Part shown: piece by piece, positions 16,319-60,889 of the stretch | Layout: each line of letters begins with the position of its first letter | How positions within the stretch are numbered: position 1 is the first letter of the stretch | Assembly: GCA_016748015.1 (NCBI GenBank) | Contig: JAAOMT010000134.1 | Location: forward strand, 1,618,757 to 1,682,756 | DNA length: 64,000 nt | Reading direction: 5' to 3' | Origin: Geosiphon pyriformis uo1 | Taxonomy: Eukaryota; Fungi; Glomeromycota | Notes under the pieces: model-generated | Told to the model about the DNA's origin: nothing | Databases searched by the model: none | Seen by the model: only the letters and a program-made list of their open reading frames with translations | Program-made: the position numbers and the translations under genes

Positions 16319-18551
16319 TGTTATACTGCTATTACAGATGATTATTTGGGGTTTGAAAACAAATAACAAACCCATAACTTGGTACTCAATAGCCAATAAT
16401 ATAGATGTAAATAATATTTGAAGGTTTTTAGAATCTAAAGGTTTTGGTTGAGTTCTTTGTATAATAGACAAAGATTCGATAGATGTATTTTTTGATAATG
16501 TTCTTAGTGTTTTATCAATCCTTGAGTTAATGTGCTTGTTTTGTCCATTATTTTCCAAAATATTTATATTCTATCAATTTCTTTCTCAGCTTGATGGCTT
16601 GTAATCTTCTGGTAAGCTATTTTCAATTTTAAGTGTTTACCCTTATTTCTGGGTTTTTTACCAGTACTATATCCTAATATTAGTACTCTGCATGTTAATA
16701 TTTTAATCAATTAATAAATCCACAATAAAACAAAAAAAAAGAAAAAGAAATAAAAAAAATAATAAAAATAATGAAAAAAAAAATAAAGAGATAAGCCAAG
16801 ACAAAAAAAAGTTAGTATTCTGTTAATAGCCATAATCAAGAGTTATTGGTTTAGTATAGTTAAGTATTGGTAACTATTAACATGAATTGTTAATAGTAAA
16901 AAGATGAATTGTGATATGTAATAAGTATTTTATTAATATTTTATGTTTCCACTTCAAGTTATAGAATACTATTGTATAAAAGGATGAATAGAGAATTGGA
17001 ACTGAAGATTCTAACTAAAGATTCTGTCTTTTTTGCTTTTAATACTACTTCTATATATACATAAATTTTGTTAAACAAGATTCCTTGAATTTCTTAATTC
17101 TCTAGCCAGAAATTCTGTAATTTTTTGAGAGGAATCCTAGAATTCTGGAATTCTGTAATTCCTTATACTGGGATCCTGTAATTCTGGAATCCTGCAATTT
17201 TTCTGAGAAAAATTCTGGAATTCCACTTTTACTATGTCTTATTTTGATTGGCTAATTTGTGTACTAATATATAATTCTTATATTCTATGAGTAACACTAT
17301 GTAAGGAATTGCAAAATTTTAGAATTTCAGAATTTCAGAAATTCCAGAATTCCTGGCTAGAAAATTGAGAAATTCAAAAAACCTCAAACAATAAAATTTA
17401 TGTATATATAGCAGTAGTATTAGAAGCAAAAAAAACAGAATTCTTAGTTTAGAATCTTTAATTCCAATTCTATATCTATTTTTTTATATGATAGTATTTT
17501 ATGACTTAAAGTAAAAACATTAAATATCAATAAAATACTTATTTATTATCACAATTCATCTTTCTATTATTAACAATTTATGTTGATAATTGCCAATACT
17601 TTATTATACTGAACCAATAACTTTTAATTACAGTTATTAATAAGATACTAATTTTTTCTTGCCTTGACTTATTTCTTTATTTTTATTTATTTTATTTATT
17701 GTTTTTATTGTTTATTGTGTACTAATTAATTTGAAAGATTAAGCATTAATTAATTAATGTCATAAATAGTCTGATAAAAAACTCCAAAAAAAGAGTATCA
17801 AGTTTAAAAAATTTATGGATAAGCTTATCAAAAAGCACAATTGCCAGAATAAACTGACCATCATGCTAAAGACAAAAATTGGATGGAATTGTAATTCTAA
17901 AAGACTACTAAAACAACACTTGAATCTCTGTTTATTATACAAAAAACTTAACAAAAACTTTTAGACACTAAAATCTTCAGATATTACTAACCAGATCAGC
18001 TATTAAGCACTAAGTTATGAGTTTGTTATTTGTATTAACATCTTAAATAATTACTTGTAACATTTAGTGCTCTCTGTAAAGTATAATCTTATAGAGAACC
18101 AGTATTAACAACAACTATTCAAAAGTGACAGAATCAGAAAGAAAAAAAACAAAATATCTAAGATTTACTAAATCCTTATTTCAACACTACTGTTAACACT
18201 TGGAATTAATCAACAACCAACTATTAATGAAATTAGTCTTTAATTTTTATGTCAATAAAAGAATTAAATATTTCTTAGGAGAATCAATAAATATTGAATC
18301 AGCAAGAGGAAATTTTTATAATAAATTAATTCAATATACCAGCTTACTATTAAACTATAACTTTAATCCAATCATTATTAAAATCAACAGAGAAATTGAA
18401 AATCACACTCAACAAACATTTTCTATTATCTATGCAGAAAAAAGCAAAGAAAAACTACAAACACCAGTAGAAACTCTAAAACAAATATAATTACCTACTT
18501 GGAAAAAACAAAGAATTGATTTACCAGTTAATCTATTATATTATCACATGC
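16319..18551 (+). mobile_element. Family A element A0, 5' fragment: LTR (16319-16329 + 17297-18062), PBS, start of ORF1
   Basis: LTR ends TTGTAACA at 18062, then TT-TAGTGCTCTCTGTAA (decayed PBS), AAAA-GTG at 18125 and homology to ORF 24870 (FNFYVNKRI..KLQTP). The 5' LTR boundary at 16319 is less certain. Confidence 0.75.
16330..17296 (-). mobile_element. Family A solo LTR
   Basis: Ends TATTACAG... and ...TGAGTAACA; GGAATTCC-type repeats; flanks CTGC/CTAT (decayed 4-bp TSD). Confidence 0.85.
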
Positions 18552-18663
18552 TATTACTTATAGAATATAGGAAATATATTAGCATATAAATTAACCAATC
18601 AGAAGTAGCCATAGTAAATGTGAAATTTCAGGATTCCTCTTAAAAGAATTACAAGATTCTCAT
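18552..18663 (+). mobile_element. 5' part of another family A LTR, interrupted by A1
   Basis: TATTACTTATAGAATATAGG matches the family A LTR start; it stops at the A1 terminus. Confidence 0.8.
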
Positions 18664-19487
18664 TGTTACAGGTGATTATTTGGGGTCTCAAGTCAAATAA
18701 CAAACCCATAACTTGGTGCTTGATTGGTATTTTCTGGTGTTGATATTTGAAGGTTTTGGTATAGAGTTCTTTGTATAATGAACAGAGATTTAATAGTTGT
18801 GTTATCCATAGCTTTTCAAAACCACAGTTTCATCAATTTTTTTCTCAGCATAATGGCCAGTATTTTTCCTGGTAAGCTATCCTTAATTAAATGTTCTATC
18901 CTTATTTCTAGGTCTTTTTCCAGTCACTTTGATGTCAGTAACTCTGTGTATTATTTTCTTTAATCAATTAGTACACAACAATAAAACCAAAGAAAAGAAA
19001 TAAAAAAAAGAAAATAAAAAAATAAGCCAAGGCAATTTGCAAGTTAGTATCTCATTAATAGCCATAATCAAGAGCTATTGTTCCAGTGTGGTTAAGTATT
19101 AATTGCTATTAACATGAAGTGTTGATAATAATGAGTAAGATTGAGATAGAGACTAATTATTTATTAATAGTTGTGAATAAAAGATTGCTTAGATTAAATT
19201 TAAACTGGGTGGTCTGTCTTTTCTACTTCTAATACTACCACTATATATACATAATTAAGATTCCTCAATTCTTTATACCAGAAATCTTGGAATTTCTGAA
19301 ATTCTGCAATTCCTTTTGAGAGAAATCCTGGAATTCTGGAATTCTGCAATTCTTTGTATGAGAATCCTGAAATTCTTGGAATTTTGCAATTCCTCTTAAG
19401 AGGAATTTTAGAATTCCACATTTACTATGACTACTTCTGATTGGCTAATTTATATGCTAATATACTTCCTATATTTTATAAGTAATA
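18664..19487 (-). repeat. A1 3' LTR (PPT at 19488-19503)
   Basis: TGTTACAGGTG...AGTAATA termini; adjacent purine tract on the minus strand. Confidence 0.88.
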
Positions 19488-20140: not shown

Positions 20141-20199
20141 TTTTTTGAAGTCTTTTATCATGTCTATCATGTCTTTATATACTCTTTTATTGTTCAATT

Positions 20200-21576
20200 T
20201 TACATGTTTGGTCTAATGATTATGATTGGTTCCAGATCTTATGGAATTTCATCTGGTTAAACTAGTATTCTCTGTACTCCTAATTGTGGAATATTACTGG
20301 TAAATAGTGATACTATATGGTAATATGGTTTCAGTCAATTACCATGTACTGCTTTGGCTAAGATTTTGTTATCCCATCTTAATTTATAAGCTCTATTTTC
20401 AAGAATTTCTTCTATGTGAAATGGTCCATCCCATTTGGAGTCAAATTTTCCACTCCATTGTTTTTCTGCTTTAATACAATGTAAAAGTACTTTGTCTCCA
20501 ATCTTGAATTCAACTGGTTTATCTGATAGTTGGTTATTGTGTCTTTTTTTCTTTTTTTTTTGTGACTTTTGGATGTTATTAGCTGCTTTTTGCCATTTGT
20601 TTTCTAGTGTTTCCATTATGTCATATGTTTTTCTTAGCAATGTTTCCTAAAAATTGTCTTCAATTATTGGTTCTGTTGGATAAGTATTGACTTCTATTTC
20701 AACTGGTAATATTGCTGTTCTACTGTATACTAATTCAAATGGTGTTGTTTGTGTAGTGTCTTGCTTCATTGTCTGATAAGTAAATAATACTGATAGTATG
20801 AACAAATTCTATTTATTCTGGTTTTTTTGATTAATCTTGGCAATTGCTTTACACAATGTTCTGTTAAATCTTTCAACTAACCCATTTGTTTGTGGATGGT
20901 ATGGTGATGATAATGGTCTTTTTATCCCAAATCTTTGACTTAATTCTGTTAATGTTTTATTCACAAAGTGAGTTTTTTGATCTAATAGTAGTTCTTTTGG
21001 ACATCCATGTTGATAAATCAACTCTTAATGAACGAATTTGGCAACAGATTCTGCATCTGTTTTTTGAATGGCTTTTGCTTCTGGCCATTTAGTGAGATAA
21101 TCCATGGCTATTGCAATATATCTGTTGTCTCTACTGGTGATTGTTAATGGTCCGACTAAGTCAATTCCGATACAATCAAATGGTTGTCTTATTTTAATTG
21201 GTCTTAATGATTCACTGAGTCTTGTTCCTTCTCTTCTTTGATAAGCATCACAATTTTGAACATATTAGATGATGTCAGGATACATTGATGGCCAATAATA
21301 TCTTTTTCTGGTTCTTTTCATGGTTGCCTCTTTATAAAAATGTCCTACTGTTGGATCTGAGTGCATGTTGAATAATATTGTCTTTTTCTTTGGTTCTGTG
21401 ATTACTCTGGTTGGTTGATTTGAATTTTTTCTGTTCTTTCAGTAAAGTATATTCTGATGGTTGATAAAATATTTTGATTGTTGTTTTATGTTCCTTTGTT
21501 CTCATTGAAATAATTTTTCCTTAAACAATTGGGTATTTATATAATGTTAGAGTTGTTGGTATTTTTGTATATTCAT
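20200..21576 (-). pseudogene. A1 integrase ORF
   Basis: ATG 21576; H..H..C..C zinc motif, IGIDLVGP, SPYHPQTNGLVERFNRTL, KWDGPF. Confidence 0.88.
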
Positions 21577-21606
21577 TTTTTGTTATATTTTTGGGTTGAA
21601 ATGTTT

Positions 21607-23944
21607 TTAGATTTGTCTTATTTATGACAATCTGTCAGCATTTCCATTTTTTTTCTTTTTTTATAATGTACTGTATAATTAAATAGTGAAAGTTCTATTT
21701 TTCATCTGGCATAACAATCATTTTCAAATTCTTGTTTCTGGATTGAAGTCAATCCTTTGTGATCAGTGTATATGTCAAACTTCTGACTCAAGTATTTTTT
21801 CTATTTGATAACAGCCCAATAGATAGCTAAGTGTTCTAGTGCTGGAGTTTCATAGTTTTTTTCAGCTGGATTTAAGCTTCTACTGGCATAAACTACTGGA
21901 TGCTCTCTTCCATCCAGTTCTCTCTGCAATAGTACTGCTCTTAATGCTTGACCAGATGCATCAGTTGTTATTATAAATGGCTTGTTATAATCTGAATAGA
22001 TCAATACTGGAGCTTGAATAAGCTTTCTTCTTAATGTATCAAAAGCTTTTTGTTGAGTTTCAGTCCATTTGTATTTGGTGTTTTTTGTTTGAAGTTGGTG
22101 TAATGGTTAAGCTATTTTGGAAAAATTCTTGATAAAGCAACAGTAGTATTCTGCAAATCCCAAGAATGCTCTTAATTTGGTGAGATTATTTGGTACTGAA
22201 AAGTTCTTAACAATTTCTATCTTGTCTGAATCTGTTTTGATACCATCTTTGCTCACCACATGTCCCAAAAACTTGAGTTCTGTTTTGTCAAAGAAGCACT
22301 TGTTTGCATTTAATTTCAATCCTGCTTATCTGAGTCTTTCAAATACTTGTTGGAAATGATGTAAATGATCATCAAATGTTTTGGAGAACATATTGGTGTC
22401 ATCTAAGTAAACAACTACTGATTTTTACAGTAGTCCAGTATAGACAATTTTCATAAGCCATTGGAATATTGCTGGAGCATTCATCAAGCCAAATGGTATG
22501 ACTTCAAACTCAAAATTTCTTTCTCGTGTTGTAAAAGCCATTTTCTTTTTGTCTTCTAGTTTTATGGCTACTTGCTAGTAACCACTGTCTAAGTCTAAAA
22601 TTGAAAACCATTTTTTTCTTCCAAAAGCATCAAACAGCTCTTGAATCTTTGGTGTTGAATAGCTATTACCTTTAGTTACTCTATTCAGTTTATGGTAATT
22701 TACACAGAAGTGGATTTTCCCATTTTTCTTACAGACTAGTACTACTGGTAATAACCATGGGCTCATTAATGGCTGAATTAGCCCATTGTTAAGCATCCAA
22801 TTGATTTCTTGACAAATAATTTCATGGCTGGCTGGTGGTATTCTGTATGCTCTTTGTTTAATTGACATTATATCTCCAGTCTTAATTTAATGCTAAATTA
22901 TGTCAGTTCTGCCAAATTCATTTTTGCTTGCAAAGATGTCATTGAAGTTGTTGAGTAATATCTTAAGTTGTATTCATTGAAGTGAGTCTAAGTTTCCTAA
23001 GTTCATCTGTTCTAATTGTTCTGGTTGAAGCAGATAACATTCTTCTCATCTATAGATTGTTTGTAATGTGATATTTACATATCTACACAATTGTGAAAAG
23101 TCTGAAATGGGGTTTGGTGGTTGTTCTTCAATTTCAGTGGTTAAATATCCAATAGTGGTTCCTTCTGGTATCTCCATAATGTTTTCTATGTTGTTGTAAA
23201 TAGGGATTTTAATATGACCATGATTCTTGACTGGTATGTGTAAATTAATTAATCCAATTTTTCCTGATTCACAAAGTTGTGCTTTTGCCTCAAACATTTG
23301 AATCTGATTCTTCACTTTTCTCTCTATAGTTACTATGTACTAGTCATATAGTGGAATAGAAATTGATTGACGGGTAAAGATAATTTTTCCCTTGTCAATG
23401 ACCTTTTCTTCTGTCATATTAACTGGTATATTTATTCTACTTGTGAACCCAAATCTTTGTATCTTTCTTGCTGTTATCCCTAATTTTTTCCTGTTTCCCA
23501 CTAATATTAATTGAGCTACTTTAACTAGAGGTAGAAATATTGTCTGTGTTATTTTTTCATTTGGATCTATAGTGTAGGCCTTTTCTGAGTCATTTTGTAG
23601 CATAGCAATAATATTTCCTACATATCTTGCATCAATTATTCTTTCTCTAATGTTGATTCTTTTTTTTGCTAAGCTACTTCTAGATGCTAGCTGTACTATC
23701 ATTGTTGCTGAAATTTCCAGTGCTATTTTGAGATCAATACAGGTATGTAAATAGAATTCCAATTTGATGAGATCTTTTCCTAGATATCTCAAATCAAATC
23801 CTGCATCAGTATCATGCACCCATTCTGGCATAATACCTTCATCATTATCGCTGAATTATTTAAGTTCTTATTTCTTGGTGAGATTGGGAAGTGCGATAAA
23901 TGTTTTGGGATTTAAATCAGAGTCTGAATTGTTGTTATTTCTGT
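21607..23944 (-). pseudogene. A1 ORF1 3' part: dUTPase, RT, RNase H
   Basis: HDTDAGFDLRY, LASRSSLA, PVVLV.KKNGKI.FCV, YLDD, IITTDAS, YASRSL; TAA at 21607-21609. Confidence 0.9.
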
Positions 23945-24810
23945 TGTTACTCATAGAAATATAGGGAATATATATTAGCATAGTTATTAACCAATCAAAA
24001 GTAGACGTAGTAAAATGTAGAATTCCAGGATTTCTCTCAGGAATTGCAGGATTCCAGAAATTACAGGATTTTTACAAGGAATCGCAGGATTCCAGAATTC
24101 CAGGATTCCTCTCAAAGGAATTGCAGGATTCCAGGAATTCCAGGATTCCTGTTGTGAAGAATTGAGGAATTGAGGAATCTCAATTATGTATATATAGCAG
24201 TAGGATTAGAAGCTAAAAAAACAGATCTTTTAGTTTAGATTTCATCTAAACAACTTTCCAAAACACAAATAAATAACTGTTTGTTATCTCAAACTCACTA
24301 CCACTATCAACACTTCATGTTGATAGTAATTGATACTTAACCCCACTAGAATAATAGCTCTTGATTATGGCTATTGATGGAATACTAACTTGTAAATCAC
24401 CTTGGCTTATTTTTTTTCTTTTTTTATTTTCTTTTCTTTTTTTTATTTTTTTGCTTTGATTTTATTGTTGTTTACTAACTCTATTGAGGATTAATGTGCA
24501 GAGTATTGATGTCAGGATAAACGTGACTGGTAAAAGACCCAGAAATAAGGGTAGAACACTGAATTGAGGATAGCTTACCAGGAAGAATACCTCAAGCTGA
24601 AAAAAAAATTGATGAAACTGCAGTTTTGGGAAGCTACAGATAAAACTATTACCATTGAATCTTTGTCCATTATACAAAAAACTTAACCAAACTCTTCAGA
24701 TACAAACCTTCAGACACAAACCTTCAGATCACTATTAACTGCAACTAGATTTGAGCACCAAGTTACGAGTTTGTTATTTAATCTAACATCAGAAATAGTC
24801 ACCTGTAATA
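23945..24810 (+). repeat. A2 5' LTR
   Basis: TGTTACTCATAG...CCTGTAATA; GGAATTCC/GGATTCC array, TATATATA near 24189, T-rich tract. Confidence 0.92.
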
Positions 24811-24829: not shown

Positions 24830-26521
24830 TATAATCTTATAGAGAACCAGCACCAACACAAATCTAAAAGTGGCAGAATCAGAAAACATAAGAGCAAACC
24901 ATCTAGAATTGGCAAAATCCTTATTTCAACACTACTGTCAACATTTGGGATTAAATTACAACCACATATCAGCAGAATCAGCTTTCAATTTTTACGTCAA
25001 TGAAAGAATTGCCTATCTGTTAGGAACACCAGTAAATATTGAATCAGCAAGAGAAGCCTTTTATAGTGAATTAATTCAAAATACCAACCTGCCAACAAAT
25101 CACAATTTTGCTTCTATTATTACAGAAATCAACAAAAAAATTGAACACCACACACAACAAAGATACCCCATTACTTATGCAAACAAAGGCAAAGGAAAAT
25201 TGCAAACACCAGCAGTAACACCCAAAAGAATACAACCATCTATTTGGAAGAAAACAAAAGTTGAGTTCCCAACTAATCCATTATACCACTATACATCTGG
25301 AAGTGTCATTAATATTACATTTACCAGTACAGTCACATCAAACATGACATTAGTATTTGGACAATTCCCATTCCAAAGTAAACAAAGGAAAGCAGAGTTA
25401 TTAGAACCATATGGCGCGTATTTTAAAAGATTTAACTCGCAATCATCAATGCCATCAGGACTTCGATCACTACCACCACCACCAGTTTTCAGTACTGCTA
25501 CTCTGTGAGAATTATCCAAAGAAGAGGAACAAGAAGAAGAGGAAGAAGAATCTGAGGATCAAGAGTTCACTTACCAAAACCCAATTTCTAAAAACCTGGA
25601 ATTTGAAATCCCAAACAATCAAACTCCAAGAAATCCAAATCAAGAAAACCCCGAAATTGAAACTCTAAATATTAGAACACCACCAACTCAGGATAATTGA
25701 AACCCTGATTTAATAAATCAACAAAACTTATCTTCAATAATCATCATCAATCAACCACCAATTAATCCAATAGCCAAACTCATATAGCAGCTACTTCAAC
25801 TACTACCCCAACAACCCATGCAACAACAACCGCTTCAACAGCCACCACAACAACCCAACTTAGATCCAATGGCCTATGCACCAATTGCAAAACTTGACAA
25901 TTTTACCAGTGAAGAAGATGACACTCAGATATGGCTGAATGATGTGGAAAAAACCATTGCAGCCAACGGATAGAATGATGTTCAAATAATGCAAGCCATT
26001 TCTTACTTTCTCAAGGATACCACCAATTCATGGTATTAGAGCTTGATTAATAAATCACAAGACTTCAATGCCTTTAAAGTGGAATTTTTAAGATACTTTA
26101 GCAACAATAACAGTATCAATCGCCTAATCAATACTTTCACCACCATAAAACAAGGAAAAACTGAAGCAGTCACCACTTACCTGGGATGCTTCCACAGAAA
26201 TCTATGCCAAATTCAAGCAATTAATGCCAACATTTCACAGTGCCACAGATCCTCAACCAGTTTATTTGTGGCCTGTGCAGCAGCATCTTACAATATGTAT
26301 GTCCATTACATTTTGGCACCCTTCAAAATGCAGTCACACACACCAGAGATTTTGAATCAGCTAAGTCTAAGACCAACCATGCCCAAGCCATCAATCTAGT
26401 GATAAACAAGTCATCTGAATTGAATTCCAAATTGGAGAAATTCAGGGAAACAATTAATCAGAAATTAGAGAGATACTTAGCTAACAACAATTAGACAATT
26501 TATCAACCACCACAATAATGT

Positions 26522-27554
26522 TGTTACCAGTAGAATTTTAGCTATTAATTAGTAGGAAAATTACCCTTATAATTCCTATAATTAATTAGTATATTAATAT
26601 TATTTCAAATTATCATTTATTATTTAATCAATTATCACATATCACAATTCAATTAAATAATCCAATTAGTATAATAAAAAGTAGGATGATCAAATTACAC
26701 AATACCCTGAACTTTGTAACATTCTAAAATTCACCGAAATTTACAGAAATTTGCCAAAATTTATAAGAAATTCACCAAAATTTATAGAAATTCACCAAAA
26801 TTATGAATAGTTCACCCAAATTAATTAATAGTTCAGCAAAATAACTTGTAGTTTATCAAAATGTATCTTTAGTTTACTGAAATTTGAGCAAAGAGAAAAA
26901 GTGCAAGTTCATAGACTAGTACTACAACAAGTTGTATAAAAAAAGAGCTTTTTTCTTCAAGAAAATATATTTTCTCATAGTACCTTACCATAGTATCTTA
27001 CTTTAAATATCTTAATTGAAACAAATTACCTTTTACAAAATCAAATAAAAATTAAATATTTGAAACCCAAATTCTTAAATTATTACACTTGAAATTCTCT
27101 CAACACATCTAACGTTTTGAAATTGATTAGCTACCAATTTCAATAAACTGTTAGTGACTTCAGGCCTAAATAGAAAACGTTTTCCTTGATAAAATCCTAT
27201 TTTTTTTACATTTTTTTTTTTTTTATTTTTTTTTCTTATTACAATCATTAGGGTAGCCTACAGACAAGATTCTTGTAGAAGAGTTAACTTTCACAGCAAA
27301 ATAACTACACATTTTTAGTAAGCTTCTAGATGAGCAATTCCTGGGAAAGAGTTGATGTTTACTACAACATAACTACATAAAATAACTGGCAAGAAATTGG
27401 CCATTCCACTTATAAGCCCAGCAGTTTAAATTATAGGAGATAATTTGAAGATAAATTCAGTTATTGGAGGTTCAATTACTTCTAAAAAACGTGAATTTGC
27501 AACCAACAGACAGTTACAACATTCAAGAAAAGAGACCAAAAACCTCCAATAACA
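26522..27554 (+). repeat. B1 5' LTR
   Basis: TGTTACCAG...CAATAACA; colinear with 35500-36524. Confidence 0.93.
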
Positions 27555-27556
27555 TT

Positions 27557-27572
27557 TGGTGCTCTCCCATGG
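27557..27572 (+). promoter_or_regulatory. Primer binding site (family B)
   Basis: TGGTGCTCTCCCATGG. Homologs at 57014 (minus) and 61903. Confidence 0.85.
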
Positions 27573-27599
27573 AAATAACACAGCAACAACAAATTCAAA

Positions 27600-30500
27600 G
27601 TGGCAACCACACCAGACACAGCAACTCTAGAGTATTACCAGTCAATTTACACCCACTGCAAGCAAAAATTCAACATTCCAGACGGAATTGAAGTTGTCAA
27701 GAAATCAGTATACCAATATATTGAAAACTACATCAACAATTATCTTTTTGGAAACTACAACATTTCAGAAGTTAGAAGCAATCTTTACAATAATTTAGTG
27801 CACTATTCACGATTAGGAACAGAAGACCTGAACAGTGAAACACTTGCTACTTACTTCCAAAAACTTAATTTTAACATTATTGAGTATTGTGAAAAAAAAT
27901 ACCCAGTACAGTCTCAATACTCTATTAACTTTGAATCAGAGACAGAAACAAGCAACAAAGGCAAACAAAGATTGAAGCAATACTTAAGAACCACTCCAAA
28001 CACTCCAATACTACAAAAGACAACTGCCAAACACTTGCAAACACCTAAACAAAGAACCAGTGTCAAATTACCAGTTTCTATTACATCATTTCCAATTTCA
28101 CTTGTTTAACCACAAATACCAAATTCACCACTCAACCACTTCTCCAAACTAGAAGATTTTCAGTTACCTAGAAACCTTATTCAACAGCAGGAACCAATAT
28201 CAACAAGTGCCAATATTATTGATTACTTACAGGAAAACGAAAGTAATCATTCAGAAAGCTTGGAAAGTGAAGAAACTGAATCAGAACCAGAAAAAATTAC
28301 AGAAAATGAAGAAGAAATGGCAACTGCTTACATTGCAAAAATCCCAGAATTTACTGGTGAAGACAATGATACCAGTCCTCAAGAATGGCTTGACAAAGTT
28401 CAAAAAGCAGGAGATGCAAATGGTTGGATCACAGCAAGAATGCTCAAAACAATTCCCTACTTTCTCCAAGAAACAGCAGAAGAATGGTTTGAAAATTTAA
28501 AAGAACCATTTGAAAACTGGCAAGCATTCAAAGATGCTTTTCTACAACAATTCACCAATAACAATACCTCTATTACTCTCAGAAACCACTTTTGCAATAT
28601 CAAATAAGAAACATCTGAAACTATTATGACCTATCTTGGAAGATTTAACAAACTTCTCAAATAAATCTGACAATTGGAAACCAATGACTACTATTCTAAT
28701 GCTCAAATTCTGGATCAGTTTATAGCAAGATTAAAAAACAAACTGATTAAGAAAGTTTATCTACATGCTCCAGCAGACTTAGCAACTGCTATTAGACATG
28801 CAAAGAGCTATGAAATGGCAATGGAAAAAGCAAATCACACCAAGCTTGTAAACCTTGCAATTGAAGAAACCAGTTCAGCAGCTAAAGAAAAGATAGACCA
28901 ACTTACAAAAAAGCTTGAAAGCTACTTCACAAACCAACAACAATAGCAACAACAACCACAAAGATATCAACCCTTACAATGACACAACCAAAACAATTTT
29001 GGATCACTATCCAACAACCAACCTCAAAATTGTCATTATTGTGGAATTCCAGGACACTGGAAATGAGATTGTAGGAAATTACAAAGAGACCAACAAAACA
29101 GAAGTAATCAATGTTACTCTTTACTACAACAATCTTATTACCAATCTCCACTACCAACCTATTATTTACCAAGACCACAAAATCAAAACAGTTACTATTC
29201 ACCAGCTCCACAACCAATGCAGCAACAATATCAGCAATCTTTACCAATTCAGTCATATTAGACACTACCCACTCAACAATATCAAGTACCAGCAAGAAGA
29301 TTGGTTCAACATAACCAATTCATATCCCAAAATCAATTGCAGAGTAACAACAACAGAATCAATCCAAATAACCAGTTGGTTCCCCGAAATTCTGGTCAGC
29401 AAAGACCCAATTACTATCACACTCAACCCAGTTATCTTACAATACCAGAGGAATCGGATTTTTAACAAACTGCACTTTCTGAAGATGAAGTTGCAGTACC
29501 AAGATCAAATCCTTCCAATCATACCATTCCACCAGCTCAAATTGCCCAAAATGCCAATCTGTCAGATATATTTCCATTTGAATTTGAAGCAAATAATTCA
29601 CCATTTCTGCTTAGTAATGCCGCAGTCAATAAACAGAAAGCAATTACTGCTATGTACACAGAAGCTATAGTAGAAGGAAAACTCATTCACTTAATCTTAG
29701 ATAGTGGATTGGCTCAAAGTATCATCACTTACCAGTTAATGCAACAACTCAAATAAAATGTAGACAAACCAGTTCAAACAGTTATTGTCACAGTTGATGA
29801 TATAAAAAAGACTCCAGTAAGAGAAATTAATGATTTCCCCTTTACAATTAATGGAATCACCATTCTAGTTAAAGTTCTTATTATAGATGCACACCAATAC
29901 CAAGCTCTAGTCAGAAATAATTGACTTCTCAAGGCCAATGCAAACCTGAACTGGGAAACTCAAGAACTTAAAATCTTATATCAAGAACAATATACCATAG
30001 TACCTGCAATCTGTGGTACCTTTAACAAATGATCAGAAAAAGCTCCAGTATTTGAATTTGAAGAAAAGAAGGAAATGCCACTCACTGAAACCTATATGGC
30101 TCTTGGATTACCATCCAATTGGGCTGAGGAAACAGAACAAGAGATTTTTGAAGAATTAAGAGAATGGAAGAAAGTTAGATATTCTACACCAGAACCATGA
30201 AAAAAACCACCATACATTCTACTAAAATGCAAAGATTGCAAAAAGAAGCTTTTATCTATGGGAGCCTGTATTTCTCCAAAAGAGGAATACAAAACTCGCA
30301 CTTGTTACTTCTACAAGGCATGCCATAGAAAACGATTTGGATTTCCAAAGAGAAGTAGAAAATGGGACAAAACTTCTTGCCTTACTTGTAGAAAAATGCT
30401 ACCAGAAGAATGCAACTGGATTGATGTAGCAATGAGAGGAGGAGTATGTAATCAGATCTGTCAATATGCTTTATCAATTTCGGAAAAAGTCAGAAAAGGA

Positions 30501-33224: not shown

Positions 33225-33281
33225 TACCAACAACAATTCTATCACAACTTACCAACTTACCAACAAAATGACCAAACAAGA

Positions 33282-46061: not shown

Positions 46062-46115
46062 TTCAGCAAAAGAATATATAAAGACACAATAGATACGACA
46101 GGAAATATCAAAAAA

Positions 46116-46745: not shown

Positions 46746-46758
46746 AAGGAAGGAATAA

Positions 46759-49093: not shown

Positions 49094-49812
49094 CTAAACA
49101 ATATCTCTAATTTTGTCTGATAATATAACCTTCTTCTCAAGACTGAGTTCTGTCGAAGTCTAAGTACTGTCTGTAATTTCCAGATAATAATCCAAAATTA
49201 TTGAAGAAATTTGGTCTGAAAATTGTTAAAATTTCAGTTCTGTGAGCTTTCCAATATATTGAATCTTCAAAGACTGTAAAATTGGGTTTTGTAGGACGTT
49301 TTCACAGATGTGGAATAGGTCATAGAGTTTAAGAGCAGCTTTTAGTTTATAATAACTGTTTGTAAGTCCAGCTGTTGTCTTAAATTCATTGTGGAGTTGT
49401 TTCCAAATAACTTCTTTTGTGATGTTTGCTGCTGTAAGCTCCCATTTTCATTCATGAAGTGTTTTTTCAATGTAGAAATATCTATATATTGGAGTATAGT
49501 TATAGTTTTTTTCATTAAGACACAGTTGAAGTTTTTGTTGAATAGTAGCATTTGGTGGAATACTAATAAGAGTGAGCATTAAGTTTTCTTTTAAAACAAG
49601 CTTTAAAAGTTTTGGCAGGTAAATTCCAGAATAACTTCTTGTATTTTTCTTATATGGGTGATATTTTTGTGAATTTGGGGCTAAATTTGTAACTACTTCT
49701 GTTTGAGTATAATTAAGTGGTTTTCAGTAACAGTAATGGATAATTTGGGTATTGTTTTTAAAGCTAACATTAGTTTTTGGAATAATTGTTGAATGTTTTG
49801 AGGAATAGTCAT
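49094..49812 (-). pseudogene. B2 ORF3
   Basis: MTIPQNIQQLFQKLMLALKTIPKLSITV..., homologous to B1 ORF3; stops inside the LTR; one apparent frameshift. Confidence 0.75.
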
Positions 49813-49932
49813 TATAAGAGATTTGAAAAAAATAAAAGAAAATTATATTTGGTATATGGGTTTTTATGTTATTTTTGCTTTGTTTTTGTGAGATTGTTTC
49901 TAAATTATAAAGAAATAACTATAATAATAATT

Positions 49933-51324
49933 TTAAGTTAAGTGTTCAAGTTGGGGGGATTGTTCAATAACAACTATTGGTTCTAAATTTCAGGGAATAT
50001 CTTCAGGATTGATTAAAGAGAAATGTGTACCAATTTGTGGAATTAATGGTTCAGAATTGTTTCTGGAATTATAGTGTTTCAAACAATCTCCATGTGCAAC
50101 TTTTGCTAAGATCTTGTCATCAAGTCTTAACTTGTATGATCTATTGCCTAGGACTTCATGGATAAAGAATGGTCCATTCCATTTATTTTCAAATTTTCCA
50201 CTCCATTGTTTTTCAGCTTTAGTTCTGTGTAAGAGAACTTTGTTTCCAATTTTAAATCCATTGGTAATTGGAGGCAATTTGTTGTCATGCCATTCTTTTT
50301 GTTGAGCTTGGAAGTGTTTAATATGAGTGGCTGCTATTCGTCATTTTTCTTTCAATGTGCTAAGCAAAGTGTAGGCTCTTCATTGTAGTGTTTCCTAAAA
50401 GTTGTCTTTATTAATTAGTTGTACTGGATATGTTTCTATTGTGAAACTAATTGGTAACATTGCTGTCCTTCTGTAGGTTAAATCAAATGGTATGTGTTTT
50501 GTGGTATCTTGTTTTAGTGTTCTATATGCTAGTAATACTGATGGAATAAAGAGATTCCATTCTTGCTCAAAATCGGTTGAGACTTTGGCTAATGATTTAC
50601 ACAATGTTCTATTGAAACATTCTATAAGTCTATTTGTTTGTGAATAATAGGACAAAGATAATGGTCTCTTGACATTAAATTGTCCACAAATTTCCTGGAT
50701 TAAATTGTTCACGAAATGTGTTCCTTGATCAGATAAAAGTTTTATTGGGCATCCATGTCTACAAATGATGTCTTTATATATGAAGTTTGTTACTGATTTC
50801 ATATCTGCTCGTTAAATGGCTTTGGCTTCAGGCCATTTGGTGAGATAGTCTACAGCTACTGCAATATAACGGTTTTCTTGGTTTGTAATAGGGAGTGGTC
50901 TGACTAAATTAATACCTACTCAGTCAAAAGGCTGTCCAACTTTAATTGGATTTAAAGATTCTGTAGGGCGAGTTCCTTCTCTTCTTTGATAACTATCACA
51001 AGACTTAACATATTCATAAATGTCTTTTCTTATTTGAGACCAGAAATAATATTCTAGTATTTTTTGGGTGGTGCTGTCTTTTCCTAGGTGTGCTGATGAA
51101 GAGTCTGAGTGCATGTTATATAAAATAGTTTCTTTTTCATGTTCTTGTATTAATCTAAGTAGATTGTCTGGGTTTCTGAAGTTTCGATAATAAATCATGT
51201 TGTTGTGTAAGAAGTATTGTTTGGCTTGTTGTTGTAACTGATGTTTTTTATCTGAGGACCAATCTGTTGGAATTGTTAATGTCTCCAAATATTGTTTAAG
51301 ATTGTTGTAGTTTTTGGGGTTCAT
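49933..51324 (-). pseudogene. B2 integrase ORF
   Basis: ATG 51324 (MNPKNYNNLKQYL), LSDQGTHF, FNRTL, KWNGPF. Confidence 0.9.
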
Positions 51325-51370
51325 TGTTTGTTGTTTTGTTGTTAATTTAAGTGGGTGTTGGTTTTGTATT

Positions 51371-54300
51371 CTAATCTTGCCTTATTCTTGAGAGACAATC
51401 AATATTGGTATGGAGTTTTTCTGATTTGTGGTGTACAATATATCAGTAGTTGGCTAAAAATCCTGTCCATTGGGTTTGTTTTGCATTCAGCTGAGTGTTT
51501 TTGTTCTGTAGCCATTTGAGTCCAATATTATCAGTGATAATATCAAATTCTTTGGGTCTGAAGTAAAGGTTAAAGTGATGTAAAGCCCAGATTACTGCTG
51601 CAGTTTCTAATTCTGTTGCAGGGTAGTTTTTTTCGGCTGGTTTCAATGTTCTACTAGCATAAGCAATTACTCACTCATTTCTATTGTCATCTAACTGTGA
51701 TAGAATAGCACCAAAGGCAGTATAAGAGACATTTGTTGCTAACTGAAATCAGTTGCTGAAATCTGAGTAGGCGAGAATTGGAGCTGTTGTTAGTTTTTCT
51801 TTGAGGATTTCAAATGTGTTTTGGTATTCAGTAGTTCATTTGTATTTGACGTTTTTGGTGGTAAACTAGTTGAAAGGTTTTGTGATTTCTGAGAATCCTT
51901 TGATAAACTTCTGATAGTAGAAGGCTAACCCTATGAATCCTCTTAGTTCTGTAGTGTTTTGAGGAGTTTTAAAGTTTTTGACAGCACTGATCTTTTCAGG
52001 GTCCAGTTTGATTCTATTTTTATTAACAATATGACCAAGAAAGGCCAAGCTTGTTTTTTCAAAGTAGCATTTTTTAATGTTAAGTTTCAGTCCTGCTTTT
52101 TGTAATCATTGAAAAACTTTTTGCAGGTGTTTTAAGTGTAATTCAAACAATAGAGAATAAACATTAATATCGTCAAGATAAATGACTACTGACTTCCAAA
52201 GGAGTTTTTTGTACACAATATCCATTAATCTCTAAAATGTTGTTGGTGCATTGCATAATCTAAAAGGCATTATATTGAATTCATAATTTCCTCCTTGAGT
52301 TGTGAAGGCTGTTTTGGAATGGTCTTTGGGATTCATGGCAATTTGCCAGTATTCGCTTTCTAAATCTAGTGTTAAAAAGTATTTGGTTTTTCCAAGGGCA
52401 TCCAACATATCATCAATTTGGGGAAGGGGATAAGCATCTCCAATGGTGACACTGTTGAGTTGTCGATAATCAACACAAAATCGTATCTTTCCATTTTTTT
52501 TTTTAACTAAGATCATAAATAAAGCCCATGAATTCATTGATGATTGAATAAGCTCATTGTTGAGCATCTGTTGTATTTCTTCGTGGATAAATTGGTGACT
52601 TTCTGGAGCAACTTGGTAGGCTTGCTGTTGCCTTGGTTTGGCATCTCCTGTATAAATTTGGTGTTGAACCAAATTGGTTCTTCCTAAGTTATTGTTGTTT
52701 TTGGCAAAGATATCGGCAAATTCTACAATTAGCTTTTTGAGCTGGCTCTGTTGCTGTGGTTCAAGTTGTCCTATGTTGATTTGAGATAGTTTTTCCATGA
52801 CAACATAGTAGTTTTCAAAGCTGGGGTTTGGGTTGATTTTTGGTAGTAAATGTCCAATAATTTCAGAGAAATTGGGGACTGTTTGGGGTAATTTTTGTTG
52901 AAAGATATTACTGTGAATAACTTCAATTTCTAAGTTATTTAATAAAACTATGGGGTAATTATTGGGGTTGTAAAAAGTAACTTGGACTTTCTTTGTTCCT
53001 TCTGGGATGTAAATATTTGGAATCAAGATATTATGTTCTAAGCAGATTCGTTCATTAGACTCAAAAATTTGTTGGGTGGTTGTTGGCTTTGGGCAGGTAT
53101 AGATTTTGGGGTGTTCTCCGAAAGGTAAAATAGTGATTGGTTGGGAAAGGCATAAAATCTGGTAAGACTCATTCTGTTCATTGAGAGCTATGTTTACTAG
53201 AACTGTAAATCATCCAGTTGAACCAAAACCTTGTGTTTCTCTTTCATTTTTTCCCAATTGTTCCCTTTAATTGACTAACTGTAAACCCGAAATGTTGATT
53301 AAGGATAAATAGATAGCTTGAGCAATTTTTTTGGCATGTTCAATTTTGAAAGGTTTATTGGTTTTGTTTTGGAGTATTACTGTTATGTCACCAGTATATC
53401 CAGCATTGATTATTCCTCTTCTGACATTAATTTCTTTGCTTGCCAAAGAGGACCGGGAAGTAATTTGAACCATTGCTCCTGGCAGAATTTCGAGGGCAAT
53501 TTTGAGGTTGATTTTTGTGAGAGATTTGGGTTTGAGAACAAGAGTATCCTTATCTGAATATCTTAGGTCATATTCAGCATTAATTTCATGTGCTTTATCA
53601 AGTTTTATTCCTTGTCCATTGTTGTTGAAGTATTTGAGTTGTAAGGCAGACTGATTTTCAATGAGATAGATAGGTGTTGCTTCAATTTCTTCTGTTGCTT
53701 CAGGTTCTCCAAATTCAATTTCATTTTCATCATTTTCACTGGACAGGGGAATGCTAAGAGCATAGTATTCAGAGCACCATTGCTCATTGCAAGGCATTAT
53801 GCATTTTTCACACAATTTAATGTTCATTTGCTCTAGCCATTGGGCTTGAACTTCTTTGATTGGGTAAGTGTAACTGGCAATTTGGTGATACACTTTTACT
53901 TCATCTTCATAGTTGTATCCAGCAATTTCAAAAATGTATGCAATGTATTTTGATTCTTTCATTTGACAAACATTTTCTTGAATGGCTCCATTGATTAAAG
54001 TCATTGCTAGATTGAAGATCATTTCAGTATCATAAGGGTAATGGTACAGTTTGTTAAGGGCACTGTTGTAAACAGAATCAAAAGGGGTTCCTTTTGTTAC
54101 TTTTTCTGAAATTAAAAAAGCATATTGGCATGTTTGATTGCAGACTCCTCCTTTGAATACAACATCAATCCAGTCGCATTCATCAGATAATCATTCTCCA
54201 CAAGTCAAACAAGGTGTTCTATCCTATTTTCCACTTCTTTTAACTAGGTGTCCCCATCATTCTCAGTGGCAGAATTTGCAATAGTAACAGGTATGGTTTC

Positions 54301-56970
54301 TGTATTCTTTCTCAGATAAAATACAAGCTCCCATTGATGAGAGTTTCTTGTGGCAATCTTTGCATTTGAGTGGAATGTAAGAGTGTTGTTTTCATGGTTC
54401 TGGTTTTGAATAGAGAACATTCCATCTGGGTGTCACTGGTTTTTTTGTTTCAAGAGAATTGTTTGTTGAAAAATACTGTTGTTCAGTTTCATCAGCCCAA
54501 TTGGAGGTTGATCTAAGTGCCATAAATGTTTCAATGATGGGTTTTTCTTCTTTCAGTTCAAATTCAAAAGCCAGAGCTTTTTTGGAGCATTTGTTGAATG
54601 TATCACAAGTGGCAAGTATCTGGGCATGTTGTCTTTGGTAGGAGATTGTTAACTCTTGTGTCTTCCAATTCAGATTAGCATTGGCTTTTTGGAGCCAATC
54701 ATTTCCAACAAAAGCTTGGTATTGGAGAGCATCCATAACCAAAACTTTGACTGAATGGTGATTTCGTCAATTGTAAATGAGAAATTGTTAATTTCTTCTA
54801 CTGAAGTCTTTTTCATGCCATCGGCAGTAACGATTACTGTCTGAGCTGGTTGGTCAACATTTCTTTTTAACTGTTGTATCAACTAGTAGGTGATGATGCT
54901 TCCAGCAGATCTACTGTCTAGGATCAAACAAATTCCCTTTCCTTCAACTTCTGTTTCAGTGTACATAGTAGTGATTGCTTTTTGTTTGTTGGTGGCTGCA
55001 TTGCTAAGCAGAAATGGTGACTTATTTGCTTCAAACTCAAAAAGGAATATATCTAAGAGGTTGGCGTTTTTAGCAATTCTGGCTGGTGGGATTGTGATAG
55101 GAGTATAGAAAAAGTTTTGTTGTTGTGCTGCAGCTCTACCTTCTGAGAGTGCAGTATGGTAAAAATCCTGTTCTTCTGGCATCATAAGATAATTAGGTTG
55201 AGTATGATAGTGGTTGGGTCTATGTTGATTCGAATTTTGAGTGGTTAATTACTTGTTGGAATTTAATCTGTTGTTGTTTGTTGGAAAACGGTTTTGTGGT
55301 GTAAATTGATTATGTTAAACCAATCTTCTAGCTGGCACTTGATATTGTGGTGTGGATGGTTGTTGATACTGTTATTGAATTGGTTGTGGAGCAGGTTGAT
55401 AATAGTGGTTTGGATATTGTGGTCTTGGTAAATATTGAGCTAGTGGTAATAGATAATATGATTGTTGTGGTTGAAAATAACGTTAATTATTCCTCTGTTG
55501 TTGGTCTCATTACAATTTTCTACAATCACATTTCCAGTGTCCTGGAATTCCACAATAATGACAATTTTGGATTTGGTTGTTGGATGGTGGTCCAAAGTTG
55601 TTTTGATTGTGTTGTTGTGGGAGTTAGTATCTTTGTGGTTATTGTGATTGCTGCGGTGGCTGTTTTTACTGTTGGTTGGTGAAGTAGTTTTCAACTTTTT
55701 TGGTTAATTGGTCAATCTTTTTTTCAGCTGCTGAGCTGGTTTCTCCAATAACCAGGTTAACAAGTTTGGTATGGTTGGCTTCTTTTATGGCCATTTCATA
55801 GTTTTTCATCTGTTGAATAGCAGTGGCTAAATCTTCTGGTACATGTGGGCAAACTTTCTTGATAAGTTTGTCTTTTAGTCCAGCAATGAATTGATCCAAG
55901 ATTTGTGCATTGGAGTAGTATTCATTGGTTTCCAATTGGTGAATTCTTCTAAGCAGTTTGTTGAATTTCTTAAGATAGGTCATAACTGATTCACTTGGTT
56001 CTTGCTTGATATTTCAGAACTGATTTCGAAGGGTGATAGAAGTGTTATTGTCAGTGAACTGTTCTAGAAAAGCAGTTTTGAATGCTTCCCAGTGTTCTGG
56101 TGGAGCTTCCAAGTTTTTAAACCATTCATTGGCTGTTTCTTGTAAGAAGTATGGAATTGCTTTTAACATTCTGGCAGTGTTCCAACCATTTGCATCTCCT
56201 GCTTTTGAGACTTTGTCAAGCCATTCTTGAGGACTGGATTTGCTATCTTCTCCTGTGAACTCAGGGATTTTTGCGATATATGTGGAGATCATTTCTTCTT
56301 CATTTTCTGAGTCTTCTGTTTTTTGTTCTGATTTGGTCTCTTCACTTCAATTTTCTGCTAAGTAGCCAATAAGGTTTGTGCTGGTTAATATTGGTTTCTG
56401 TTGTTGAATAGGGCTTTTGGGTAACTGAAAATCTTTTATTCTTGAAAACCGAATAAGTGGTGAGCTTGGTGTTTGCAGTTGAGCAAGTGAAGCTGGAAAT
56501 GATATGATTGAGAGTGGTAATTTAAAGCTGGTTCCTTGTTCTGGAGTTTGTAAATGTTTGGCAGTGGTTTTAGGTGTATTGAGAGTAGTTCTAAGTTTTT
56601 GTTTTCTTTTTCCTTTTTCTTCTTCTGTTTCCAATTCAAAACCAAGAGAAAATTTCTGTTCTACTGGATAATTCTCTTCACAATACTGAATGATATTGAA
56701 GTTGAGTTCTTGGAAATATGTTTCAAGTGTTTAACTGTTAAAATCCTGAGTGTTTAGACGAGAGTGATGTACTAAGCTTTCATATAAGTTGTGTCTAACT
56801 TCTGAAATGTTGTAGTCTCCAAAAAAATAATTGTTGATGTGATTTTCAATATACTGGTAAAGTGTTTTCTTGAATGTTTCAATTCCGTTTGGGATGTTAA
56901 ATCTCTGCTTGCAGTGGGTGTAGATTGACTGATAATACTCTAGAGTTCTTAAATCTGTTTGAGCCACCAC
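51371..56970 (-). pseudogene. B2 ORF1 (Gag-PR-Cys-rich-dUTPase-RT-RNase H)
   Basis: GTG 56970, in-frame ATG 56292, YLDD, TAG at 51371-73; one 1-nt deletion near 54750. Confidence 0.9.
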
Positions 56971-57999
56971 TTTTGAAGTTGTTGTTGCTGTGTTATTTCT
57001 GTGGGAGAGCACCAAATGTTACTGGAGGTTTTTGGTCTCTTTTCTTGAATGTTATAACTGTCTGTTGGTTGCAAATTCACATTTTCTAGAAGTAGTTGAA
57101 CCTCTAATAACTGAATTTATCTTTAAATTATCTTCTATAATTTAAATTGCTGGGCTTATAAGTGGAATGGCCAATTCTGTGCCAGTTACTTTGTGTAGTT
57201 ATGTTGTAGTAAATGTCAACTCTTTCCCAGGAATTGCTCATCTGGCAGCTCACTAAAAATGTGTAGTTACTTTGCTGTGAAAGTCAACTCTTTTACAAAA
57301 ATCTTGTCTGTAGACTACCCTAATGATTATAATAAGAAAATAAAAGAAAGAAAATAAAAGAAATGTAAAAAAAATAGAATTCTGTCAAGGAAAACGTTTT
57401 CTATCCAGGCCTGAAGTTACTAACAGTTTACTGAAATTGGTAGCTAATCAATTTCAAACTATTTAGTAGAAATTGGTTAATTTCAAAAGGAAAATAATTA
57501 AAAATTTGATTTTTTGAATTATTTGATATTTATTTTGTTTTTGTGTGTAAAAGATAATTCTAATTGTTAAATCTGAAGTAAGATATATTTTCTCGAAGAA
57601 AAAAGCTCTTCTTTTATACAACTTGTTGTAACACTATTCCATGAACTTGAACTTTGCTTTTTTTCTACAATTTTGCTGAACTAAAGATACATTTTGGTAA
57701 ACTACAAGTTATTTCTGCGAACTATTAGATATTTCGGTGAACTATCAATTATTTCAGCAAATTTCTACAAATTTTGGCGAACTTTTGAATGTTACATATT
57801 TCGGGGTATTGCATGATTGATCATTGCACTTAGGTTACATTTGTGTTATATACAAATTGGATTATTAATTAAATGATAATTTCAGACATTTTGCTAATAT
57901 AATAAGTGATAATTTGAAACAATAATATATACTAATTAATGATAAAATTTATAAGGGTAATTTCATGCTAAACAATATCTCTAATTTCATCTGGTAACA

Positions 58000-60889
58000 A
58001 CGACTTATCCAGTTGCTGATAAGAATCATGTATTGGCATAAAATGTTGCATGTTTTTCCTTATCCAGGAATGTTGTTCCACATTCCTTCATAGAGTAATT
58101 GTTTCTCACAAGTGAGACATGGTTTGTTGTCCCACTTGTTTTGTTATTTTGAGTAGCCATATTGTTTTTGGTTGCATGGCTTGCAGTAATAGTGGGTTCA
58201 TGTCTAGTAATCTTTGTCAGATGTAATCTAAGCTCCCATGGAAGAAAGTTTCTTGCCACAATCTTGGCATTTGAGTGGAATATGTGGCAGTTGTTTTAAT
58301 GATTTATGTGAGTAAGATCTCTCTTAGCCACTAGTTATTTCTTCAGTTGTTGTGTTTTCTTCTGTTGTGTCCTCTTTCTTATCTTTCTCTTTATTATCTC
58401 AAGAAAGTACTGATAGTAGCTTATTGTGTTCGGTGTCAGCCCAGGAGACTTGATACACTTCTTAGGTAGGTTTTCTTTTTTTTTCTTTTAATTCAATCAG
58501 TGGTTTGTCATTGAGAGTGGTTTTGAAATAATCACAAGTGGCTGGCACACATGTGTGGTGGCCATTCTAGCTGAGTTGTAGTTCTTGGGTGTTTCAGTCG
58601 AGCACGGTGTTGGCTTTTAACAGCCAGTTGTTTCCAACAAGAGCCTGATACTGAGTTGCTTCCATTACCAATATTTTGATCAGTATTATGATGTTGTTGA
58701 CTTCAAATAGGAAGTTGTCTATTTCACTAATCAGAGTTTTGGTTGCTCTATCAGCAGTAATTATACGTATGCTGGCAGCATGATCAACTCAGTGACCTAA
58801 TTGGTTTATAAGTTGTTGTGTAATGATACTGCCAGCTGATTCACTGTCTAGGATCAGTTTAATGTGCTGCCCAGCAACTTTAGCATTGGTATATATCACA
58901 GTGATAGATTTTGATTCTAGGGTGACTTCACTGAATAGTGGCATTTCAATTGGTTTCTTGAATTCAAAAAAGAAGATAGCAGTAAGTGATTTGTCTTCTG
59001 TAATGGTTGCTGGCAGAATATTGTTGGTAAATGGTTTTTGGTTGACTTCTGATTTGTTGAATGTGGCATCTTCTGGGGTAATCAAGAGACTTAAATAGTT
59101 CTGGAAATTTGGGTTTTGGGTGTACTCAGTGCCTAAATTTTGTTGTTAAAATCCTGATGGTTGCATAGAGGAACTGGGAATCAGTTAATAAACTACCATT
59201 GACAATCTCCAACTTTGTTGTGTCAGTTTTGGCCTTTGGTTTCCATTTTGAGGTAAGTTTTGTGACAGTAGTTGAATTTGTTGGGGCTAATAAATTATCT
59301 GAGGCTGCAGCTAATAAATGGGTTGAAACTGCAATTGATAAACAATAAGTACTGAAAGCTGATAAATTGGTGGTTAATAGATTGGCTGTTGTGTCATAAG
59401 TAGGTAATTCAGTTGATATGGTGCTGGGTTGGGTTGATAATTTGGAGCTTGAAACTGGCAATCAGGATTTCAATATTGATTTCCCAATCGTGAATTATTA
59501 CTATAAATCAGTAGTCAGCTCTAATGTGGTCTTGTTTATCACAGTTATGGCAAACATGTATCTCTTGTTGCCATGGCTGATTTGATAATAATAATAATGA
59601 TGGACATGACTGATTTTGGAAATGATTCATGTTTCCTAAGTTATTGCGTCATTGTGGTAATTGATAAATTGGTCAGCTAAGTATCTTTCTAATTTCTGAT
59701 TAATTGAATTACTGAGTTGTTTCAATTTGGAATTCAAGTTAGATGATCCATTTATTATTAGGTTAACAGCTTGGGCATGGTTTGCTTCAAGTTCTGCCAA
59801 TACAAAATCTCTCACATTGGTGACTGTGTCCTGAAGAGTTTGTGAGTGCATTGGGCATACACGTTGAAAAAGACTACTGCACAGTTCATGAATGAACTGG
59901 TTTAGGATCTGTAGTGCTGTAAAATAATCAGCTTGAATGACTTGAATTTGGTGCAAGTTCTTGTGAAAGCATCCCAAGTAAGTAGTAACTGTTTCAGTTT
60001 CTCTCTGTTTGATTGTAGTAAAAGGGTTGGTTAGGTAATTAATACTGTTATTGTTACTAAAATATCTCAAGAATGCAATTTTAAATTCCTGGAATGTTTG
60101 AGGTTTAGTGGCTAAACTCTGATACCACAAGTTAGTCATATCCTATAGAAAATAGGGAATTGCTTAAAAGGCTTTGTTGTTATTCTATTTATTGGCTGTG
60201 ATGGCTTTTTTCACATCATTGAGCCATATTTAGGCATTGTCTTCTTTGCTGGTAAATTTTTCTATTTTGGCAATTGGAGCATAAGCCATTGGTTGTTATT
60301 GTGGTTGCTGTTGGATTTGTTGTTGGGGTAGTGGTTGTAGCTGTTGTTGCTGTTCAGTGATTGGTGGAACTGGTAGTGGATTGATCATGATTACTAAAGG
60401 TAAGTGTTGTTGATTATTAATGTCAGAATTTCAATTGTTTTGGTTTTTCAGGGTTTGATTAACCAGAGTCCCAATTTCTGGTTTTTCTAAGATCATGTTT
60501 TGGTTACTATTTTCCTGATTACTATCTTCTTCTTCTTCGGAGTCAGTTATTTCCCAAGAACTAATGGCTTCAAAATCTGGTTGTGGTAGTGGTGATTAAA
60601 TTTCTAATGGCATTGGGAATCGTGATTTAAATTCCTTAAAGTAATCGCCATATGTTCCTAGTAATTCTGTTTTCTTTTGTTTACTTTAGAACAAGATCTT
60701 ATTTAATAGTGTGATTGCATTTGTGGTGGACATGCCTGTTGATATTATATTGATAGTACTTCCAGGTATGTAATAATATGATGGATTGGCTGGAGAAACA
60801 AATCTTTGTTTCTTTCAAGTGAGTAGTTGGATTTGCTTTGGGGTTCTTGCTGGTGTTTGTAGCCTTCCTTTTTCTTTATCAGCAAATGT
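58000..60889 (-). pseudogene. A1 ORF1 5' part: N-terminal linker, capsid (ATG 60289), zinc knuckle, protease, start of the Cys-rich domain
   Basis: MAYAPIAK, FLRYFSNNNSIN, CHNC..QDHIRADY, LILDSESAGSII. Confidence 0.85.

Follow-up and report, generated by a model that had tools for sequence, protein, structure and literature searches.

Evidence for a CG-centred integration preference in a nest of Ty3/gypsy LTR retrotransposons of Geosiphon pyriformis

The 64,000-nucleotide stretch of DNA analyzed here (the window; contig JAAOMT010000134.1 of the fungus Geosiphon pyriformis) carries, next to a genic segment, a nest of Ty3/gypsy long terminal repeat (LTR) retrotransposons whose insertion sites are 4-mers centred on CG, TG or CA in at least one flank, a pattern that very probably reflects, in some form, a preference for NCGN targets. 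The first 14 kb of the window are genic and encode a dynein light intermediate chain and an MIT-domain protein, the gene for the latter being 99% identical to G. pyriformis G9A89_018720 and the remaining matches falling within Glomeromycotina. The observed/expected ratio of CpG is 0.7-1.06 in this segment and 0.0-0.4 from 14 kb on, where TG and CA are over-represented; per kb, genic DNA harbors 21.7 CpG versus 4.4 in the repeat DNA, a roughly five-fold difference. LTR expansion is described as striking in Geosiphonaceae (PMC11952901).

Self-alignment and junction reading were used to map the elements, and resolved the nest into two Ty3/gypsy families, A and B. Element A1, on the minus strand, is host to A2, B2 and B3, and A2 is in turn host to B1 and A3. 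A1 itself was inserted in a sister LTR, of which the first 108 bp are seen; this sister LTR lies in a further element, A0, whose own LTR holds a solo LTR. A2, B1 and B2 each retain both LTRs, with TG…CA ends, a primer-binding site (PBS) and a polypurine tract, as in Ty3/gypsy elements, while A3 has likely recombined with A2. A CpG-free relic at 14690-16325 is the host of the whole nest; a six-frame Pfam scan of the CpG-free stretch 14690-16323 returned no match. The features of the nest, including its target-site duplications (TSDs), are as follows.

16326-16329: solo LTR left flank, CTGC; pairing with CTAT probable, not certain
16330-17296, minus strand: solo LTR, family A
17297-17300: solo LTR right flank, CTAT, within the A0 LTR, at an LTR position identical to that of the A1 site
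17301-18547, plus strand: A0, rest of the 5' LTR (to 18062), PBS and start of the internal region; zero CpG remaining
18548-18551: half-site ATGC; sister sites place CG at its centre
18552-18659, plus strand: family-A LTR, first 108 bp, broken by A1; 88% identical to the A1 LTR
18660-18663: A1 half-site TCAT; CG origin hinges on the alignment of repeat units
18664-64000, minus strand: A1, host element; 3' LTR 18664-19487, integrase ~20191-21630, 5' end outside the window
23941-23944: A2 left TSD, CTGT
23945-47629, plus strand: A2; LTRs 23945-24810 and 46759-47629, 90.9% identical
26518-26521: B1 left TSD, ATGT; CG centre indicated by sister sites
26522-36524, plus strand: B1; LTRs 26522-27554 and 35500-36524, 92.9% identical
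36525-36528: B1 right TSD, ATGT
37463-37466: A3 half-site TCAT; sister copies give no CG centre
37467-41307, plus strand: A3, 5' LTR (to 38339) and 5' internal part, without a 3' LTR
47630-47633: A2 right TSD, CCAT
48139-48142: B2 left TSD, ATGA
48143-57999, minus strand: B2, the youngest element; LTRs 48143-49125 and 57017-57999, 96.2% identical; integrase 50050-51381
58000-58003: B2 right TSD, ACGA; CpG intact
60886-60889: B3 half-site ATGT; sister copies uninformative
60890-64000, plus strand: B3, 5' LTR (to 61900) and start of the internal region

All 12 flank 4-mers directly adjoin an LTR terminus (TGTTA/TATTA or TAACA/TAATA), so that the element boundaries cannot slide. A 5-bp reading of the duplications was rejected, the flanks then mismatching at A2 (TCTGT/CCATT), B1 (AATGT/ATGTA) and B2 (TATGA/ACGAC). 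The initial annotation had claimed a central CG, TG or CA in at least one flank of all eight sites, and each of its 4-mers was found in place against the TGTTA…TAACA ends of the LTRs. The centres of the 12 flanks are TG in seven cases, CA in three, CG in one and TA in one (11/12 TG/CA/CG), compared to a summed CG, TG and CA frequency of 0.149 at positions 14001-64000. Counted by site against this background, eight of eight gives P = 2e-7, eight of nine (the A0 boundary ACTA scored as a miss) P = 2e-6, and seven of nine P = 4e-5.

The presence of CG at the target at the time of insertion was independently shown at four of the eight sites, is probable at two and was not shown at two. At A2, the flanks are discordant (CTGT/CCAT) and fix the original target as CCGT, deaminated on opposite strands as first proposed, the 4-bp duplication preserving the frame of A1. 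Discordant flanks likewise establish CG at B2 (ATGA/ACGA). For B1, empty sister sites read ACGC and ACAC and thus give a CG centre, bearing out the suggested Arg-Arg context (CGA CGY). Empty sisters of the 18548 site (ACAT, ATAC and ACAC) also indicate a CG centre, the chance of such sister evidence for a random family-A TG/CA/CG being 0.22-0.24. The A1 and solo-LTR targets, which occupy one LTR position, were probably CG; derivation of the A1 half-site from CG, asserted in the initial annotation, hence stands as probable, while it depends on a repeat-unit alignment and on an LTR position shared with the solo LTR. The inferred targets are CCGT at A2 and, elsewhere, ACGT, TCGT, ACGC and ACGA.

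Two insertions, at 17297-17300 and 18660-18663, thus lie at an identical position of the family-A LTR, each oppositely oriented within an LTR of a close subfamily. This shared position is possibly a hot spot in GGAATTCCAGGATTCC repeats.

Differences between the LTRs of the A2, B1 and B2 pairs are almost all transitions, a bias likely to be the pattern expected of methylation-driven deamination. Visible CpG survival was 13 of 22 in B2, 10 of 26 in B1 and 7 of 28 in A2 (LTR identities of 96.2%, 92.9% and 90.9%, respectively), and CpA to TpA changes accounted for between a quarter and a third of the differences within the three pairs (11/37, 20/73 and 21/79). They are also seen at LTR termini (TATTA, TAATA); this loss of cytosine outside CpG may be RIP-like (repeat-induced point mutation) or reflect non-CG methylation. 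One consequence of the two flanks of an insertion decaying on opposite strands is that annotation based on TSD matching misses such copies.

Beyond the window, 800 contigs from the public run X1 were aligned to a B1 reference made up of the terminal 40 LTR bases plus 20 flank bases (ATGT…). Since run X1 may itself be the source of the window, it widens the count no further than this organism. The summed depth amounted to 280,081 over the last two LTR bases, 82,076 over flank bases 1-2, 28,462 over bases 3-4 and 3,920 over bases 5-6, compared to a depth of 88.5 for the locus itself. The resulting ratios are 0.347 inside the 4-mer (bases 1-2 to 3-4) and 0.138 past the duplication (bases 3-4 to 5-6), and this mild drop followed by a steep one indicates that many other copies run on with xTG. 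Loose ends were found in seven contigs at +3 and six at +4; a separate set of loose ends, obtained as consensus sequences, was dominated by the PBS. When de Bruijn contigs were simulated, random flanks yielded a first ratio of at most 0.21 with a second ratio then of 0.36-0.53, whereas CG-centred flanks gave first ratios of 0.20-0.51, bracketing the observed value; the closest joint fits were obtained with 75-100% CG (0.38/0.12-0.14 and 0.33/0.13-0.15). For family B, the profile is incompatible with random flanks across the genome. A CG-derived centre agrees with it better than a generic pyrimidine-purine (YR) step, but this falls short of proof, the separation between the two not being clean. 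The LTR-end words were all but absent from runs X2 and X3.

Pfam matches on B1, B2 and the family-A elements follow the Ty3/gypsy order of gag, protease, reverse transcriptase (RT), RNase H and integrase, within a fuller arrangement that reads gag, protease, Cys-rich insert, dUTPase, RT, RNase H, integrase and an extra open reading frame (ORF). The integrase comprises H2C2, rve and SH3_Tf2-1 domains, and its best matches among solved structures are the Ty3 and prototype foamy virus integrases. As the initial annotation had maintained, it is devoid of a chromodomain: none of the four window integrases showed one at E-values up to 1, the C-terminus stopping after SH3_Tf2-1, which sets these elements apart from chromoviruses. 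Inspection by eye revealed a Y-P-Y/F-Y stretch ahead of the integrase zinc finger that fits the textual definition of the YPYY motif (Y/F-P-Y/F-Y/F in ~40 residues preceding H2C2); its proline is clear in B1, B2 and most relatives, and lost in A1 and A2. The Cys-rich region, ~200 residues between protease and dUTPase, is conserved in both families (30201-30752, plus; 53687-54376, minus; 41485-42144, plus) and has 186 relatives at E<=0.001, with none in the 84 related loci described below. It gave no Pfam match above cutoff, with a weak LIM match below it, and its predicted fold (mean predicted local distance difference test score 78) matched no solved fold at E<=0.001, with weak GATA, LIM and RING rows. 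The extra ORF lies behind the integrase and ahead of the 3' LTR (34836-35519, plus; ~49130-49800, minus; 46062-46757, plus). It matched no Pfam family and, in the Atlas, only hypothetical Mucoromycota clusters; one relative was found, in locus L003. A weak Spuma_A9PTase match (E 6e-7) at 52232-53209 on the minus strand, between dUTPase and RT, is additional to the aspartic protease behind gag.

Relatives (P0076-P0195; L001-L080), which when intact encode the integrase as a stand-alone ORF of ~420 residues starting MD/ELxxY, are widespread in metagenomes and in Rhizophagus. The 84 related loci, 80 from metagenomes and four further fungal-like ones, yielded a single usable flank, that of metagenome contig L069, which ends in TAACA followed by CTGT. 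Five more distant elements with 4-bp duplications (AAAG, CATA, GATT, GATC and ATAG) have AA, AT, AT, AT and TA at their centres, none of the five being TG, CA or CG; the CG-centred pattern is thus not generic. One L109 element has a 5-bp TSD, and L099, L104, L105, L107, L108 and others without a clean LTR pair were left uncounted. The family-B LTR-end pattern had no match in viral contigs, which held three distant relatives, or in metagenome contigs. Bradyrhizobium matches were dropped as bacterial insertion sequences, and where several loci show an LTR end plus PBS behind the integrase, the assembly is taken to have closed a circle through the LTR. Contigs filed as bacterial metagenome-assembled genomes (L087, L090 and L091 from CBDBCZ01, and L089 from OZ220007) also contain complete Gypsy LTR elements whose TSDs are intact; these likely represent eukaryote contamination.

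The explanation we favour, with moderate confidence, is that the integrase selects NCGN by sequence and bendability alone and that deamination, likely driven by methylation, later converts the target to TG or CA. Nested Ty3/gypsy elements making 4-bp duplications would, under this explanation, carry an integrase that narrows a general YR preference to a central CG in the way the transposases of Ginger1, an animal cut-and-paste element, do; NCGN would be a loosened version of the CCGG/CCGT preference seen in Ginger1, set by the integrase, and the duplicated CG would then decay. The NCGN preference put forward in the initial annotation was upheld by the excess at the central step, the discordant flanks, the sister sites and the X1 depth profile. 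Several points weigh against it. The sample is eight sites from a single window, only four of which have two flanks, and the contexts of the A1 site and of the solo-LTR right flank, at one family-A LTR position, are not independent. Sisters of A3 (TGAT, CAAT) keep A at position 3 and place the CpG one base off centre, and those of B3 are uninformative as to a CG origin. CpA to TpA changes are common enough here that TG/TA is no proof of CG. The boundary ACTA, which the initial annotation left uncounted, does not upset the statistics when scored as a miss, but it may be a ninth, non-fitting site: the host LTR should continue leftward of the solo LTR left flank with its initial ~105 bp, which are missing there, and a true pairing of CTGC with CTAT requires that this segment was lost by deletion behind the TGTTA at 16319; ACTA would then be a genuine misfit. 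The depth profile is indirect, the aligner penalties not being known and 6 of 22 loose-end places being visible; no model of a wider simulation grid fits all three ratios, YR flanks reach first ratios of 0.20-0.40 (0.29-0.39, near the observed value, at low mismatch penalty), and two of the loose-end consensus sequences are CTA, as would also be permitted under a TA-rich YR model. Finally, the relationship of the window elements to Ginger1 is a putative one drawn from motif description.

The initial annotation had gone further, suggesting that integration possibly prefers methylated CpG and that copies would thereby be steered into silenced repeats, explaining the nesting without a chromodomain. 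The mark might be read as 5-methyl-CG at the unstacked central step or through a reader encoded by the element. Such a lineage of chromodomain-less fungal Gypsy elements, steered by the silencing mark and exhausting its own targets as CpG decays, strikes us as unlikely. All eight sites do lie in CpG-depleted repeat DNA despite the genic 14 kb with five times the CpG per kb, toward which a CG rule based on sequence only would point, leaving the nesting unexplained; B2, with LTRs 3.8% diverged, landed on a CG in A1, itself older than A2 (9.1%), when most CpGs had presumably been lost; and in the related fungus Rhizophagus irregularis, CG methylation of transposable elements (TEs) is generally high (10.1101/2021.03.30.436303). 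The same nesting is nevertheless predicted by a high repeat content and selection against genic insertions, which we infer to be its source, and a duplicated CpG decays after any insertion, so that no methylation is required at insertion time. No reader was recognised, the chromodomain being absent and neither the Cys-rich insert nor the extra ORF having a family assignment. A 1992 paper cited in PMC5408687 deals, by its title, with CpG methylation in relation to the in vitro integration of retroviruses.

That any flexible YR step (TA, CA, TG or CG) suffices, with CG modestly favoured, appears less probable still. According to PMC4422553, YR enrichment at an unstacked central step is a general trait of retroviral integrases and is most marked in those that make 4-bp duplications, and, given YR, the lack of TA at eight of nine sites is unexceptional (P = 0.12). 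Yet TA, the most frequent YR step in this DNA (0.080), occurs in one of 12 flanks, its absence from eight of eight sites has, given YR, P = 0.03, CG was present at insertion in two of four two-sided sites while making up 0.004 of present steps, and YR models fit both depth ratios jointly worse than CG models. Chance combined with flexible counting in TG/CA-rich DNA can be all but dismissed: the sample is small and one site was excluded post hoc, but the LTR termini are fixed, P remains at 2e-6 to 4e-5 with misses counted, and random flanks fail the X1 profile; together, these statistics and the profile have already largely refuted it.

Methyl-reading, if true, would amount to heterochromatin targeting without a chromodomain, and these elements offer a high-copy natural data set in which the ability of an integrase to read cytosine methylation could be examined. 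A literature search, not extending to subscription papers or Repbase entries, found no published CG-centred target for a fungal LTR element; no such rule appears in the accessible parts of reports on GingerRoot (PMC6839031), Cryptococcus TEs (PMC12810828), TEs of arbuscular mycorrhizal fungi (PMC11952901) or fungal DNA TEs (PMC5751038). Drosophila ZAM/tirant errantiviruses, named as precedent in the initial annotation, resemble the window elements in that Gypsy integration is sequence-specific at a CG-rich 4-mer, but do not hold up in detail: the ZAM subgroup targets CGCG, a 4-mer with GC at its centre (PMC5408687), and the elements have AGT ends. Prototype foamy virus and gammaretroviral integrases share the 4-bp stagger and unstacked central YR step, but their preference, as reported in PMC4422553, is weak and extends to any YR, unlike the apparently strong and CG-specific one found here. 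Two insertions at one sister-LTR position recall Gmr1-like vertebrate elements. For those of fish, a bias toward same-family LTRs, and possibly toward methylated sites, has been suggested. Gmr1 elements have the integrase before RT; here the order is RT, RNase H, integrase.

By text description, the window integrases match the motif class of YPYY-type Gypsy elements, listed in the available text of Bao et al. 2010 (PMC2836005) as Athila/Tat, Cer1, Gypsy-1_RO, Gypsy-1_DD and DGLT-A1. No target preference is given in that text for these elements, and the window elements carry in addition a dUTPase, the Cys-rich insert and the extra 3' ORF. The suffix of Gypsy-1_RO presumably denotes Rhizopus oryzae. 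The closest precedent is Ginger1, whose integrase belongs to the class with YPYY, H2C2, DDE and GPY/F and whose TSDs, in 112 Hydra elements with TGTNR ends, are reported in the same text to be CCGG in 75% of cases and CCGT/ACGG in 24%. Like the elements described here, Ginger1 has TGTNR ends and makes 4-bp duplications centred on CG (shown at four of eight sites in the window, with strict CCGG/CCGT at A2 only). It differs in being an animal cut-and-paste element with terminal inverted repeats and no RT, whereas fungal LTR retrotransposons with direct LTRs and RT are concerned here, and in its outer target bases, which look relaxed in the window. A CG-centred rule in an LTR retrotransposon would link the CCGG/CCGT preference of Ginger1 to Gypsy integrases, its presumed relatives.

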